Below are positions 1 to 6,697 of a stretch of 24,774 bases of DNA, piece after piece. The DNA is taken from positions 1-24,774 of the IMG/VR virus record IMGVR_UViG_2778261448_000010; one strand, given 5' to 3'. Under the pieces are notes generated by a model that saw only the letters and a program-made list of their open reading frames with translations, ran no database searches and was not told where the DNA came from. The translations under genes and the position numbers were made by a program. Position 1 is the stretch's first letter, and each line of letters opens with the position of its first letter. The stretch is from a virus. Its lineage: Duplodnaviria > Heunggongvirae > Uroviricota > Caudoviricetes.

Positions 1-90
1 TCACTCTGCCAGATGGCGCAATGCCATCTGGTATCACTTAAAGGTATTAAAAACAACTTTTTGTCTTTTTACCTTCCCGTTTCGCTCAAG
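1..90. other. Bacterial chromosomal flank (B' side of the lambda attachment site)
   Basis: The sequence adjoining the core (reverse complement CTTGAGCGAAACGGGAAGGTAAAAAGACAA...) matches my recollection of the E. coli attB B' arm. No phage-like ORF is present; the minus-strand frame ending at 1-3 is only 8 codons. Confidence 0.6.
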
Positions 91-105
91 TTAGTATAAA
101 AAAGC
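91..105. other. attR: attR core (lambda-type common core, reverse complement GCTTTTTTATACTAA)
   Basis: The exact 15-bp lambda att common core is present as its reverse complement, with a lambda P-arm-like sequence on one side and attB-like sequence on the other (P-O-B' on the minus strand). Confidence 0.75.
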
Positions 106-250
106 TGAACCAGAAACAGAAAAAATCATTAATCTCAATCCATTACAATACATTTGGCTTAAAAAATAGACTGTATAATACTGCAAAACACAACATATCC
201 AGTCACTATGAATCAACTACTTAGATAGTATTAGTGACCTGTAACAGAGC
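106..250. other. attP P-arm remnant with Int arm-type/IHF/Xis binding region
   Basis: The reverse complement reads ...TCTGTTACAGGTCACTAATAC...CAGTCACTAT...GTTCAGC up to the core, closely resembling the lambda P arm including CAGTCACTAT-type arm sites. It is AT-rich. Confidence 0.65.
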
Positions 251-251
251 A

Positions 252-292
252 TTAGCGCAAGGTGATTTTTTGTCTTCTTGCGCTAATTTTTT
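252..292 (+). terminator. sib: sib/tI-like hairpin plus T-tract (lambda int retroregulator/terminator)
   Basis: Plus strand TTAGCGCAA-ggtgattttttgtcttc-TTGCGCTAA followed by TTTTTT. This is a perfect 9-bp inverted repeat with a U-tract, matching the lambda sib/tI sequence as I recall it, on the strand an int transcript would use. Confidence 0.7.
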
Positions 293-426
293 GTCATCAA
301 ACCTGTCGCACTCCAGAGAAGCACAAAGCCTTGCAATCCAGTGCAAAGCTTTGTGTGTCTCAGTTTTGTCTCATCAACTATAATATATTAATGGCATATG
401 ATTGATTATTAGAGAGTTACATTAAC

Positions 427-2559
427 TCACTTAAAAGGAGTGTTTATCCTAACAACTCTCAAATAAACATCTCTTATATTTTCACCTCCATTTGGCCTTA
501 AAACTGTTGCTGAAATAACTCCACTTTGTGAAGCAGATACTGTTGCGTTATATACTAATGAACTATTGAATTGTTGAGCGTGTATTTGCCTTGATGTTGT
601 TTCAATTTGCTCTCCGGCTCTCATCATAACTGCATGTTCTGAAAAACACCCGCCAGCACCAGTTGTTGTTGTCGCTGTAACCTCAACTCTATAGAAATAC
701 ATAGCAAGCGTACCTGAGTTTACTGAATTATTTGGAACTGGCACTTGTACGGTTATTGAGACTGGGCCGCTATCAACTCCTGTTGCCTGAGCACACCAGC
801 CAATTTCACCATTCTGAGATATTAATGTGAATATGCATCGATCTTTTGTCCCAGCGTTTACCTGATACGTTGTTGTATAGGTGGCACCATAGAAATGCTC
901 TACGGTTATGGCAGTACCGAAGTTCTCTCCCCAACCAGTCCATGAAGGCCAGATACTGGCATTGCTTTTAATGGCTACGCCATTATTGATGCACTTCAGA
1001 GACACTTTCCCATTATTACAAGAACTCAAGAGCACAGGGACTCCAGGAATGCTGTTCCTTAGTGTTATCTCAACATCCGGCTGCTCTGCGGTTACCAACA
1101 TTAGTGGCTCGACTGTTCTTGGAACCGTATTGAGCGGTATGTTAATCTCCATGTCGCGCACTCGCGTCCTTGTACCGCCACATAGAAATGCGCATACACC
1201 ACCTACATTAGCAGGAAGATAAAGTCGAACACCTTCAAAAGACAAATCAAAAACATCCGATTGAGAATTTGTGATGATTTGAATAAGGTGTATAGGGCCG
1301 TTAACGTTTTCTCCCGTAAAATTACTCTTACTGGTGATGTTTCTGTAAATACCACCTGTTCCTGATACTTTTGCCGCAAACACTGGTGTGTCCGTCATGG
1401 TGCAAACTAAACCATCAACAACACACCCTGTTGACCCCGTGAGTTGTAAAGTTACATTGCAGCCGCCGTATCTGTTAGATAGAAGATTTCCGAACTCACC
1501 ACAGTTTGTTATAGAACCACTAGTGTTATTGATATACATCAGGTGTGACGGACCATACGCACCGAAACTTTCGTCATGCCGCAATGTCCCATACACGTAC
1601 TCAATATTGCATCCTGCAAAGTTGTTAATAAGTGCGCATGAATAGTGTGTACAATAGATGTTAGAGAAGAGAGAGCCTCTAAAATCACCCTCATAACCAG
1701 AAACAAGGAAGTCGTAGCGATTATCGCTGGTTTCACCGACTGCCATCGCATTAATCAATTTGAAACGATACGCGTTTGAATTCATCCCGATAAAGCCACA
1801 GAACGCAGCTTCCCACGGGCGAGTAATTCCATAGCGAGTGGTTGTTGTGCCCCCCAAAGGATAGCCGCCTTTATAGACAGCATTAAATCCCATAATGGTC
1901 ACATCAGGATTCCTGTTCATGAAGACCAGAAATCCAGTTTTCTCATGAGTTATTTTAGCACCGTTAAAATCAATATATGCACCAGCGGGAGGAGTGATGA
2001 CATTTTCCTCATTCATCACCATACGATATGTGGAACCTCTCTTCATGAGGCATCTTCCAGTCATAATAGCATTAGTCACCGCCACTGTATCATCAGCTAC
2101 ACCATCTCCAATTGCTCCATATTGCTCTGGCGTTGCCCAATATGACAAACTATCCGCTACTGTACCAGCCAAGTATCCAATTTTAGTTGCACCATCTTCT
2201 TCAGACAGTTCACTTCGAAATTGATCAGGGTCGTACTTCAGCACATTCGGAAAATAGAACTGCTGCACACCGTACGCATCATAAACAGCCATAGAATGGC
2301 CTTGCACAGTTACGAACTTGGCAATCTGTCCGTTATATACAGGGTAACCAGCAGCGTTAATGATGATTGGTTGCGAAACAGGAACGTGAGAGCCGTCTTC
2401 GTTTTCCACATAAACCTGAATCTGGTTTTCAGGATGTACAGGGTCAGTGTCAATTTTTCCGATATAAATTTTGCCATTGGCTACGGCTTTAAAAGATCGC
2501 GCCATAGTGAAGAGTTGCGAAGGCATCGATACGATCACATTGGCTGTAATGTCTGTCAT
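427..2559 (-). CDS. Tailspike protein (P22 gp9-like head-binding domain, HK620-like length)
   Basis: The 710-aa ORF starts [13 protein letters not shown]...[19 protein letters not shown]...[12 protein letters not shown]...NVLKYDPDQ, matching the conserved N-terminal head-binding domain of P22 tailspike. The remainder differs from P22 gp9. 710 aa is the length I recall for the HK620 tailspike. RBS GGAG lies upstream of the ATG. Confidence 0.9.
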
Positions 2560-2615
2560 TTAATTTGCTCCAGATACAAGGAATCGCCGCAGCGTAGCTA
2601 CGGTGAATTTTGGGC

Positions 2616-2642
2616 ATAAAAAAACCCAGCCGAAGCTGGGTC
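2616..2642 (-). terminator. Rho-independent terminator between antirepressor-like gene and tailspike
   Basis: Perfect hairpin CCCAGC-cgaa-GCTGGG (2625-2640), followed on the minus strand by a 7-U tract (plus-strand AAAAAAA at 2618-2624). Confidence 0.7.
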
Positions 2643-2659
2643 GTTGCGTTGGTTATCTG

Positions 2660-3590
2660 TCAGTAGTTATGTACTGAAGGAGGCAATTCTTTATTCTTAA
2701 GTCTCATCCATGCGGAAAGATTCGTTGGTCCGTCTGGCTCATTAATATCAACATCTCGTGTGTGGTTTATTAAAACGTCTCTCGCCATTCCGATAACATA
2801 CGAGAATTCATGACCGTAGTCGTAGCATCTGCCGGAATAGTTCGATTGAATTTGTTTTAGCGCCGGATACAGTTCGCGGAATAATGCCTGTGAGCGGTTG
2901 GCATAATCCCATAACCATACAAGGCTGTTTGCTTCTTTTGCAGAAAGCTCGTTGGTTTTCTTCTCTTGTTTGCCAATGAACTCACCTTCAAGTGGAACTC
3001 GAGCTGCAAGTGACAGTGCTTCGGTAAACTGCTCCTCACTGATTTCTTTGTACGAACATCCAAAATGGGATTTCAGTGACGACCACATGGTGATCATCGC
3101 CTTAGCCTGTTTTTCTTTTGGCAGAGACTGACCGCGACTCATGACGAGTTGTTTAATGGCTTCCTGCTGTTCAGTGGTGATTTTACCCGGCAACGCCTTT
3201 TTAGCTTTGCGTGGGTTAACTACATGGCCTTTAGTCCAGTACTCATAGAGCACATCGTCACACTCTTCCTGATACTGGATTACATTGTCGCGGATTTCAG
3301 GACGGACTTTGTTAGGGCTGATGGTTTGCAGCCAACCTGCAAGTTTGCGAAGTGCCAAACAAATAATCTCACGGCACTGTTCATCACCAGGAAGCTGCAT
3401 TGTGATTTTCACAATGGAGGTTTTAAACCGTTGCTTTATTTTCGTAAACTGTGAAGCCCAATCCATACCCATGCCTATCAACGATAGGTTTCATTGGGGT
3501 GTACGGTTCACCGTTGTGATTGACGACATAAAGCTCTGCGCCGTGGAATGGCACGTTGATAGTAGATACTGCCGTTGCTATACTTTTCAT
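2660..3590 (-). pseudogene. Antirepressor-like gene (P22 Ant N-terminal domain family) disrupted by a 1-bp frameshift
   Basis: A 55-codon ORF from ATG 3588-3590 ([38 protein letters not shown]...) ends at stop 3423-3425. The 273-aa track ORF (2660-3481, TTG start) continues the same domain in another frame ([14 protein letters not shown]...LPGDEQ...RKLAGWL...[12 protein letters not shown]...[15 protein letters not shown]). Removing the minus-strand A at about 3476 would fuse them into ...[16 protein letters not shown]... Confidence 0.6.
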
Positions 3591-4570: not shown

Positions 4571-6697
4571 TTACTCCTGTGCTATTCCGCTTAGCGACGC
4601 TACAATGCCAGCCCTCGCTAAGCGATTGAACTCTTCGTTTCCAACTGCATCACGTATTGCTTTTACGGCGGCTTTATTTGCCATAAATCTGCGTTCCGCT
4701 GCCGCTAATGCTTCTTTGCTTCCGCCTGTTCTTACTGCTTTAGTGGCTTCCTGAACTGCTTTCTCTATCGCATACCGACCACTACGTGTGGTGGCAATTT
4801 TAGATACAGCGCCTTTTAACCCAGCGCCAACTAAAGCACCTGCGGCAGCGCCTGCAATGCCTCCTCCAGCGCCACCAACAATGGCACCTGATGTTGAGTT
4901 GGCAATTGCATTTAACACTGTTGATGTGACGTTGGATAAACCAGCATCCAGATCGCGTAGTACATTGGCAGTTCTCCCTGTTCTTTCAATATACTGCTGA
5001 GGTTTCACTGCTGCTCTTGCAAGAGTGCCATACGCATCAGCAATTCTTCCAAGCTCTGAGGAATATCTGCTAATGGCTTTTACATTTTGTGGAGTGAGTA
5101 TCTCTGCGATATGGTTAATTCCTGCTGCATCAGCTTTGCCACCACGTACACCATGCGAGATGGCATCCTGCAACATTGATGATATAGCAGGAACACGCTC
5201 TGATTCTGGCAGCGCGCGGATCATAGAATGGAATCCAGCAGGACCATTAAGGCCTTTAGCTGACGATGATTGAAGAGATTTTACTCCATTCGTAATCAGT
5301 GCATCTGTTGCCAAATCACGCCCAAAGACAGACTCTGCACTCTCTTGTGCGGATAACCTCGCTTTAGACAGATCATTAGCTTTTTGCCAGTCATCAAGAA
5401 ATCCGCCGTTTTCCGCCATTGTGCGCATATCATCAGTAATTGCCCGGCGTATTTCCCCTGCTCTCCTTGCCGCATTTGCCTCTCCGCTACGCTTATATTT
5501 TTGCTCCGCATCAGCAAATTTCGCTCTCCATGCTTTCATGCCATCAAATGTTACTCCACCTTGATTGTTTGCCTGAACAAACTGTTTCATTTCAGGAGTA
5601 AGCGGTATGCCAGCAGATCGCTCTGCCTGAATAACGGCATTACCATTTAGCATTCTTGCTTTTTGATTTGGCATTGTTGACCGCACGTCATCCCATGCCG
5701 CGCGCTCGGCATCCTTCATCTGATCAAGATTTTGAAGAATCCTTTGTTTTATAGCCGCACTTTTTTCTGATGCCGTTCCAGATGCGGCCCCAAATTCATC
5801 AAGGTTTCGACTTAACTTTGATGATATTTCGTTAAATGCTGCCTGATGGGCGTCCTGAACAATTCCTGGTGTTGATGCCAATGCTCCTTCGGCTTGTGCA
5901 ATTCCACGACTTCCAGATCGCATTCCTGGTGTTAATGCGTTTATATCAATTCCAGCAGACTCAGCCGCTTTTGCTACATCTTCGGACACATTAGCGGCCT
6001 GACTGGCAATTGACTGACGCCCAGCACCTGACTTTGCCATCCTGGAAACATCATTAGCAGAATTCAGTGCTGCACCACCAAGAGCCTGTGAAACCCTTGG
6101 CGCAATAACGCGCCCAAAACCTGAAAGAACGCCTTGAGCGCCAATATTGATACCACCGTTAATGGCAGCATTTTGTGCAAAGTCGCCCTCCTGATTTGCA
6201 GCATCAGCAAGAGAACCTGCAATCATGTTTCCTGCGGAACCGATGTCTCCTGCGAGCTTTGCTGGCGCTCCAGCAGCTTTTGCCGCTGTGCCAATTGGCA
6301 GGAGATACCCACCAATTGTTTCACCAGCTTGCGCGTAAGGGTCTGTCGGTCTGTCTACTGGACGATAAACATCATCCAAAACCTTGGGGCCACCAAGCCC
6401 CTGACTGATTGCATTAATCAGACTTGCGCCACCCTGCAATACGTCAAATGGTATGTTTACCAGACCACGACCAGCCTGTTCTGCAATTTGCCCTGCACTT
6501 TGACCACCAGTGAGCCAATCGCCAGCTTTTTGCATCAATGATGGTTCTTCACGTGCTGGTTCATTGCTATCCTGGCTGACAGTTTGTTGCTGAACAGACT
6601 GTCCAGCAAAATACTCATCAATGGCAGATCCAATATCTTCCGTGCTCGTACCATCAGGGAAGGTAAATGTCTTACCGTTTGCAGTTACTTTCATCAT
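4571..6697 (-). CDS. Ejection (E) protein gp16-like
   Basis: The 708-aa ORF begins [33 protein letters not shown], matching the P22 gp16 N-terminus as I recall it. It sits after gp20 in the conserved order 7-20-16. Confidence 0.85.

Follow-up and report, generated by a model that had tools for sequence, protein, structure and literature searches.

What are the two long inverted repeats that stand side by side next to the attachment site of this virus, and do they make up one regulatory element or two? The question arises at the beginning of IMG/VR record IMGVR_UViG_2778261448_000010, of which positions 1 to 24,774 were analysed (the window). The first-pass annotation had seen in the first repeat (hairpin 1) the sib/tI retroregulator of phage lambda, stranded at attR, and had listed just downstream a second repeat (hairpin 2) of unknown role. 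In this study, we identify hairpin 1, from its sequence, as the lambda sib/tI site, an element of known biology, and we propose that hairpin 2 is a separate, shared element of about 55 bp which is a putative terminator or insulator. For these two assignments taken jointly we put the probability at roughly 0.8. The features of the locus are compiled in Table 1.

Table 1. Features at the attachment-site end of the window
Feature	Position	Strand	Basis
Host E. coli DNA, bio-side B' flank of att-lambda, directly 3' of ybhB	1..90	+	match to E. coli GB089
Host hairpin CCAGATGGC-5 nt-GCCATCTGG	9-31	+	inverted-repeat search
att core (O) TTAGTATAAAAAAGC, reverse complement of lambda GCTTTTTTATACTAA; prophage-host junction of attR	91..105	-	15/15 identical to lambda core 27724-27738
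Lambda-type P arm	106..246	+	alignment with lambda, 434, HK97, HK106
Int arm sites annotated in lambda as 'int 2' / 'int 1'	~195-214 / 227-246		lambda feature table
Extended sib stem: lower stem ACAGAGCA 244-251 with UUUUUUGU 287-294	244..294	+	inverted-repeat search and folding
Predicted intrinsic terminator tI: G+C-rich stem of 10 bp (252-261 paired with 277-286), loop of 15 nt that includes a small inner stem, T6 287-292	252..292	+	sequence, folding, lambda comparison
Hairpin 2: loop of 6 nt on a core stem (321-335 paired with 342-356, C.A mismatch at one pair), extended weakly on the outside by GAGA/UCUC	316..361	+	inverted-repeat search, folding
Conserved element of ~55 bp, AGCACAAAGCCTTGCAAnCCnnTGCAAAGCTTTGTGTGTCnCnnTTTTGTCTCA, including T-tract 363-366 and direct repeat GTCTCA-N5-GTCTCA 356-372	320..373	+	alignment of 99 copies, 209 phage records
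CII-box consensus match TTGC-N6-TTGC, TTGCACTGGATTGC, then third repeat TTGT 326-323; directed toward attR and host	333..346	-	motif scan
Convergent P22-type tailspike gene, 710 aa, last prophage gene; 3' end toward hairpin 2	427..2559	-	ORF list and Pfam

Concerning the setting, window 1-90 is E. coli DNA right after ybhB: the match to E. coli GB089 begins one base past the annotated ybhB CDS, and bioA-ybhB is directed into the prophage. For this reason the junction within 1-105 is assigned to attR (POB') of a P22-like prophage inserted at att-lambda. A blastn search of 91-430 against phage records showed that lambda (NC_001416 27473-27738) covers window 91-357 at 91% identity; HK106, HK629/630, 434, HK97 and others also matched. 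With the lambda locus oriented so that int lies on the plus strand, the match is plus to plus, and the plus strand of the window is thus the int-sense strand and corresponds to the lambda int coding strand, as the first-pass annotation had maintained. The identity to lambda differs from segment to segment. The core-proximal part of the P arm (106-190) is identical in 67 of 86 positions (78%), the P2-P1 part (191-243) in 51 of 53 and the segment 301-357, which includes hairpin 2, in 56 of 57; window 358-420 is unrelated to lambda. At attR the integration module of lambda type is represented by the half without int, which occupies window 91-373. Beyond hairpin 2 lambda carries ea59, whereas in the window the convergent tailspike gene is found, whose residues 1-113 correspond to the Pfam family Head_binding (PF09008, E = 5.8e-66). 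Since a tailspike with a P22 head-binding domain is the first gene beside the lambda-type att, a P22-like virion module is joined here to an integration module of lambda type.

The far end of the prophage was read from a sibling prophage of E. coli GB089, which is 97% identical. Its order is ybhC, attL, int and xis, its Int is identical to lambda Int in 351 of 356 residues (99%), and cII and N genes are also present. The CII boxes at pI (TTGCGTGTAATTGC) and pRE (TTGCGTTTGTTTGC) are identical to those of lambda, and a further CII-type box lies inside a Q-like gene. The 24.7-kb window itself contains neither int nor pI, N or nutL; what is said on the function of its sib/tI site rests on the sibling genome and on lambda genetics. 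The claim that the site lies at attR and is kept apart from int by the prophage agrees with these data: host DNA follows ybhB, int is missing from the window and the int gene of the sibling is located at the opposite end.

Hairpin 1 is composed of the arms TTAGCGCAA (252-260) and TTGCGCTAA (278-286), separated by a spacer of 17 nt (261-277) and followed by TTTTTT (287-292), just as first described. The perfect stem has 10 bp (252-261 with 277-286), six of them G-C, and forms part of an imperfect inverted repeat of 18 nt (244-261 and 277-294). Over positions 244-300 the window and lambda sib/tI agree in 56 of 57 alignment columns, the sole difference being one extra T in the loop (T6 in the window, T5 in lambda). 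The proposed alignment with lambda hereby yields a clear identity, and the claimed match to the sib RNase III site and the tI terminator holds. Like its lambda counterpart (lambda ~27,530-27,585, distal to attP), the site begins about 150 nt from the att core on the same side and on the int-sense strand, and it has the upper hairpin, the U6 run and a lower stem that forms upon read-through only. When the RNA stops within the U-run (241-289), only the upper hairpin forms (-19.2 kcal/mol), whereas read-through RNA (241-297) forms the full stem with six extra pairs (244-249 with 289-294), C250.U288 remaining unpaired; lambda sib/tI RNA folds identically in both forms. Folding had been suggested as a check and gave stable structures for both hairpins on the plus strand, namely -24.2 kcal/mol for hairpin 1 (region 241-297) and -24.9 kcal/mol for hairpin 2 (region 312-372), each with z = -5.7 and with none of 200 shuffles as good. 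Phages O276, 434 and HK97 bear the annotation 'terminator tI' or 'sib retroregulation site' at the corresponding position. Among 127 sib copies in viral contigs the T-run of the loop varies, giving a pattern length of 37-40 nt, and the variant of the window is found in 21 of the 127. Both hairpins are present in the genomes of free phages such as lambda, HK106, HK629 and 434, which speaks against the objection that they might be missing from the excised phage. Judged by these alignments, hairpin 1 and hairpin 2 are homologous to lambda and not chance repeats. No evidence at odds with the homology of hairpin 1 to lambda sib/tI was found. The copy in the window belongs to the prophage of a P22-like podovirus, as compared to the lambda-type siphovirus in which the site is known.

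The sib mechanism was reportedly established in lambda by Schindler and Echols in 1981, Guarneros et al. in 1982 and Schmeissner et al. in 1984. In lambda the read-through sib stem is the form that serves as RNase III substrate and the tI-terminated form is stable; point mutations in sib alone abolish retroregulation. From the near-identity to lambda we infer that the same mechanism may operate in this prophage. In the circular phage, int transcripts started at the CII-dependent pI would end at tI with a stable 3' hairpin, and Int would be made. Transcripts from pL, antiterminated by N, would pass the U-run of tI, and the extra 3' bases of the read-through RNA would complete the longer sib stem, which RNase III would cleave; 3' exonucleases would then degrade the RNA back into int and keep Int below Xis. 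Integration would split attP and leave sib at attR, a whole prophage away from int, and therefore pL transcripts formed on induction would be expected to yield Int as well as Xis. Being stranded does not mean being idle, as both hairpins at attR face host transcription from bioA-ybhB. In the lysogen tI and hairpin 2 face outward and would stop bioA-ybhB read-through from running antisense into the prophage. Retroregulation by sib has been described in general terms (PMC5300877, PMC2951348).

Hairpin 2 follows at 321-357. Its repeat, described at first as an inverted repeat of about 15 bp with the loop atccag, is formed by GCACAAAGCCTTGCA (321-335), the loop (336-341) and TGCAAAGCTTTGTGTG (342-357); apart from the one C.A mismatch that description is correct, and the arms can be extended to 20 nt (316-335 and 342-361) with 85% complementarity. 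The tail past the stem reads AGTTTTGTC on the plus strand and GAGTGCGAC on the minus strand. After the extended stem the plus strand continues with AG-UUUU-GU, five T in 9 nt, which is a short tract located 2-7 nt beyond the firmly paired stem. A U-tract of just four U at this offset weakens the case for a terminator. No second copy of hairpin 2 was found elsewhere in the window. The hairpin 2 of lambda itself is without the T-tract, carries a stem-weakening T-to-C change and folds with -15.6 kcal/mol (z = -2.3). The loss of the T-tract and the weak stem may be the reason why hairpin 2 went unremarked in lambda, which evidently manages without a T-tracted form.

The second hairpin is a real repeat, and to its description as one of unknown role we add that it is a widely conserved and separately mobile element. 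Window 301-375 matches 209 phage records by blastn, and these differ in their integrases and att sites. Carriers include P22, L, ST64T, BTP1, epsilon34, SfV, SfII, SfI, Sf101, phage 21, 434, HK106, HK633 and mEp and Stx phages. Across P22, L, ST64T, epsilon34, SfV/SfII/SfI/Sf101, 21, 434, HK106, the Stx phages and the E. coli K-12 prophage CPS-53, hairpin 2 has the same core, stem and T-tract, the same strand relative to int and a site past attP or int. In the window and in lambda it comes after sib/tI; most other phages have no sib. Sib copies have hairpin 2 within 400 nt in 66 of 127 cases and lack it in 61, and most copies of hairpin 2 are without sib; the two occur independently, and hairpin 2 is not part of sib. 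In the alignment of the window with lambda, 434, HK97 and HK106, hairpin 2 is found in lambda and HK106, is displaced by an insert in 434 and is absent from HK97, where homology ends after the T-run of tI.

The position of hairpin 2 is constant. In epsilon34, L and 21 it is located just past attP on the side opposite int, in argW-type prophages between the int stop codon and the convergent tailspike gene, and in CPS-53 between intS and yfdG. Wherever int was detectable it was on the same strand as hairpin 2. It lay immediately upstream of the hairpin in 23 copies; in four others, which we read as small prophages, it was 7-10 kb downstream. In 17 of 17 cases gtrA follows 110-550 nt downstream on the same strand. 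This arrangement of many phages differs from that of the window, where the next gene is convergent. L019 has two copies on the same strand, between which lies a cargo block of 4.5 kb.

A pattern scan of viral contigs returned 119 loci with 99 distinct copies of 90 nt, and these define the conservation of the element. The stem is retained in all lineages, and in the 99 copies its columns 14-28/35-49 are paired to more than 90% everywhere except at pair 20-43 (87%) and at the C.A position. Ten copies carry a double-sided stem change from CG to UA, and variants of the left arm change via G.U-compatible steps. The right arm and the tail (GCTTTGTGTGTCTCAGTTTTGTCTCA, with GTCTCA-N5-GTCTCA) are better conserved than the left arm. 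T57, T58 and T60 are kept in at least 90% of the copies, and within the 3' tail no part is better conserved than the T-tract. Flanking DNA is unrelated from copy to copy; at least seven unrelated sequences adjoin the element on its left and many on its right. The sequence of hairpin 2 is conserved and not its structure alone; a plain terminator does not need such conservation, an observation that counts against this function. An argument for the transcribed strand based on G.U pairs was withdrawn, as the underlying values (96.6% paired on the plus and 88.5% on the minus strand) had used 14 stem pairs only. In 82 of 99 copies the pair left out, columns 23-40, reads C.A on the plus strand and hence U.G on the minus strand. 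With all pairs counted, about 91% (plus) and 89% (minus) are paired, with no strand preference. Folds of single sequences are likewise similar for both strands, except in phage 21, where the plus strand is clearly better. Pairing being about equal on both strands, it cannot identify the transcribed strand.

Hairpin 2 is most likely an intrinsic (factor-independent) terminator or an insulator acting in the int sense. This reading is favoured because the stem is conserved together with the T-tract downstream, because the tail of the plus strand in the window differs as described from that of the minus strand, and because the annotators of epsilon34 and L independently labelled hairpin 2 a terminator. 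Hairpin 2 would close the int/att transcription unit and shield what follows; in many phages this is a conversion cassette, gtr or another, and in the window the convergent tailspike gene, which approaches with its 3' end. In the P22, L and 21 types, where an A-tract precedes the stem, termination may occur in both directions. Known parallels are the bidirectional intrinsic terminators found between convergent genes: hairpin 2 is likewise a long hairpin between read-in from int or the host and the tailspike gene, and the P22/L and 21 types share with them the A-tract upstream and the T-tract downstream. In contrast, the minus-strand tail of the window has one T in 9, so that hairpin 2 would be unidirectional at best here. 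At the K-12 copy (~2,467,770) no 3' ends are given in the Term-seq supplements of PMC7815308 and PMC12207403, which is weak evidence, intS being poorly expressed. A simple terminator scan, which allows loops of 3-8 nt only, reported neither hairpin; this limit and what appears to be a need for uninterrupted stems probably account for the miss.

A rival reading of hairpin 2 is a CII-activated promoter, the fourth member of the pRE/pI/paQ class, which would fire on the minus strand toward sib, att and int and whose product would be antisense to int transcripts at their 3' end. The box is perfect (TTGC-N6-TTGC at 346-333, minus strand), a third repeat TTGT follows 10 bp on, and lambda has the same box in its hairpin 2. 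Curators marked 'CII binding sites' at hairpin 2 in epsilon34, 434 and 21, putative CII sites at this place are mentioned in the epsilon34 paper (PMC2629481), and an old GenBank record puts a 162-nt 'antisense RNA' on the minus strand in lambda DE3/DN1. The origin of this DN1 / BL21(DE3) annotation could not be traced, however, RefSeq annotates nothing there, and no RNA at hairpin 2 is listed in RefSeq and Rfam. With lambda pRE, pI and paQ hairpin 2 shares the direct repeat TTGC-N6-TTGC but not a -10-like hexamer at the fixed spacing: exactly 13 nt after the second TTGC, pI, pRE and paQ of GB089 have TGTACT, AAGTAT and TAGTAT, whereas hairpin 2 has TCTCTG, without A at position 2 and without T at position 6, and the flank expected to hold the -10 differs between copies. 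Nor is the strand conserved, since copies of the phage 21 type have the perfect box on the int-sense strand and TCGC-N6-TTGC on the opposite one. The window contains four box matches compared to 2.4 expected, a number reached in 22 of 100 shuffles. The orientation is also without regulatory sense, as an RNA antisense to int would oppose the integration-promoting role of CII. The box seems to arise incidentally from two self-complementary hexamers (TTGCAA) 10 bp apart. For want of a -10 at the pI/pRE/paQ spacing and of a consistent strand, a CII-dependent promoter at hairpin 2 was rejected as very improbable. The prophage sRNA svsR (PMC12803456) was considered as a relative and is unrelated, being located at the 3' end of cI.

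Two further readings of hairpin 2 were considered. Hairpin 2 might be a second RNase III-sensitive retroregulatory site, the equivalent of sib in lambdoid phages that have none (P22, L, epsilon34, 21), placed across attP from int and uncoupled from it by integration. These four phages indeed have the order int, attP and hairpin 2, all on the int strand as is sib, the stem is long (14-20 bp), and the upstream A5 of the P22/L type pairs with the downstream U5 only in read-through RNA, in the manner of sib. An upstream A-tract is equally expected of a bidirectional terminator, though. In argW-type prophages and in CPS-53, moreover, hairpin 2 comes right after int with no att between, and integration therefore cannot uncouple it there; and in lambda hairpin 2 does not suffice, given the effect of the sib mutations. 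We regard such a role as quite improbable. Improbable, too, is that hairpin 2 has no role at the transcript level and is either a DNA-level site, for instance a palindrome or direct repeat bound by a protein, or a 'linker' for homologous recombination by which cargo cassettes beside att are swapped, its similarity reflecting recombination history. Some 55 bp conserved to 85-98% between unrelated flanks is the pattern of lambdoid mosaic boundaries, and the bracketed cargo in L019, the higher conservation of the right arm and tail and the equally good pairing of both strands would fit this as well. What a fixed protein site explains less well than an RNA stem is that changes of the left arm (CACAAA, CATGCAAA, CATGTAAA) stay pairable via G.U and via the CG-to-UA double change. 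It is also the T-tract that is the best-conserved part of the tail. Relative to int and gtrA, moreover, hairpin 2 keeps its strand and position in 44 of 44 scorable cases, which a neutral linker would not need. A terminator can double as a recombination junction, and the readings are compatible; neither the RNase III site nor the DNA-level junction excludes a terminator role for hairpin 2.

A broader proposal unites these elements. Hairpin 2 could be the ancestral int-distal control element of enterobacterial lambdoid phages, a terminator that turns into an entry site for RNase III or exonucleases in antiterminated read-through RNA and would take the place of sib in phages related to P22, L, epsilon34 and 21 as well as in these four, while also acting as an insulator and recombination junction for O-antigen-conversion and other cargo; the sib of lambda would then be a lineage-specific addition which let the hairpin 2 of lambda decay. 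We offer this as a speculation with little probability. In sum, hairpin 1 belongs to the lambda sib/tI family by every feature that the sequence allows to be checked. The element family of hairpin 2 has been sequenced before and annotated here and there, and its behaviour resembles above all that of an intrinsic terminator placed where two modules meet. Nothing categorically new is claimed hereby; the modest new point is the breadth, the fixed orientation and the fixed position of the element.

The sib/tI site is a textbook element in the expected place, and it precisely marks attR, the orientation of the prophage and the presence of a lambda-type integration module in a P22-like phage. Hairpin 2 is the more useful result. 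What looks in the lambda b region like an anonymous inverted repeat turns out to be an element of about 55 bp found in hundreds of phages and prophages of the lambdoid group, whose integrases differ. It always borders the int/att unit on the outside, and gtr operons subject to phase variation often follow it directly downstream. Should hairpin 2 be a terminator or insulator, it would define where int transcripts end in phages for which this has never been mapped, and it would explain how conversion cassettes are shielded from read-through. Its breadth and its fixed orientation and position pose a simple experimental question that is easily tested.

Searches beyond the phage records added little. 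Rfam cmscan (E <= 1) of window 1-3000 and of the lambda and 434 loci gave no match; at the HK106 locus its only hit was a sub-threshold match to CssrB, which lies about 84 nt past the end of the homology with the window and is not relevant. A full-text literature search for the hairpin 2 sequence returned unrelated primer matches only. In a scan of genome contigs (596 Gb) most of the 120 returned loci look like chance matches, and therefore no taxonomic range of hairpin 2 is drawn from it; six of them are true copies and belong to Citrobacter and E. coli.

The hairpin-2 element, a conserved stretch of about 55 bp that follows the sib/tI site in the window, is also carried by the cryptic prophage CPS-53/KplE1 of Escherichia coli K-12, where it lies between the stop codon of intS and yfdG (gtrA), and the model strain is therefore a ready test bed. 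Hairpin 2 of lambda itself is a decayed copy. Its left arm carries a T-to-C change, the homology stops short of the T-tract, and its folding energy is -15.6 kcal/mol (z = -2.3), as compared to -24.9 kcal/mol (z = -5.7) in the window. In modules of the phage 434 type, found in 26 of the 127 sib-bearing loci, an insert of about 100 bp with an annotated 49-codon ORF separates sib from hairpin 2. On the core-proximal side, the P arm (window 106-190) shows just 78% identity to lambda, whereas the adjoining stretch comprising P2-P1, sib and hairpin 2 (window 191-357) reaches approximately 98%. Phages 434, HK97 and HK106 are likewise divergent in this core-proximal part.

A direct repeat with 11-bp spacing, GTCTCA-N5-GTCTCA (window 356-372), lies within the element's conserved tail, and its second unit is retained in many hairpin-2 copies. 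From hairpin 2 to the tailspike stop codon, the window holds two A+T-rich imperfect palindromes without homology to lambda. Paired copies of the element occur as well. In locus L019, same-strand copies flank a cargo block of 4.5 kb on both sides, which encodes a GNAT acetyltransferase, an HTH regulator, a GIY-YIG protein and an Oac-like acyltransferase; a convergent tail-fibre-assembly gene adjoins the second copy. Locus L045 likewise has two copies.

The positions of these and the following features are listed in the table.

Coordinates of hairpin-2 copies and neighbouring features
Feature	Locus	Position	Remarks
Hairpin-2 element, K-12	L130	2225-2279	NC_000913.3 ~2,467,724-2,467,778
Hairpin 2, lambda	L001	1729-1766	lambda ~27,473-27,510
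Insert region, phage 434	L002	1692-1861	
A+T-rich imperfect palindromes	window	373-406 and 406-436	
Paired hairpin-2 copies	L019	619-675 and 5131-5187	same strand
Annotated antisense RNA, lambda DE3/DN1	L005	1406-1567	- strand; GenBank annotation
Intervals compared for HNH ORF	window; L007 (GB089 sibling)	~2560-2660; 5660-6290	
Host hairpin	window	9-31	CCAGATGGC-gcaat-GCCATCTGG; directly past ybhB stop

GenBank records of lambda DE3 and phage DN1 annotate an "antisense RNA" of 162 nt on the lambda r strand, which crosses hairpin 2 and extends as far as the A-run of sib. At this site, RefSeq holds no annotation and Rfam gave no match.

Between the tailspike and antirepressor genes, the sibling prophage of E. 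coli GB089 has an additional HNH-endonuclease ORF, which is absent from the window. At the host end, the hairpin past ybhB has no T-run 3' of it, and tI would be the first T-run hairpin seen downstream of ybhB in the lysogen.
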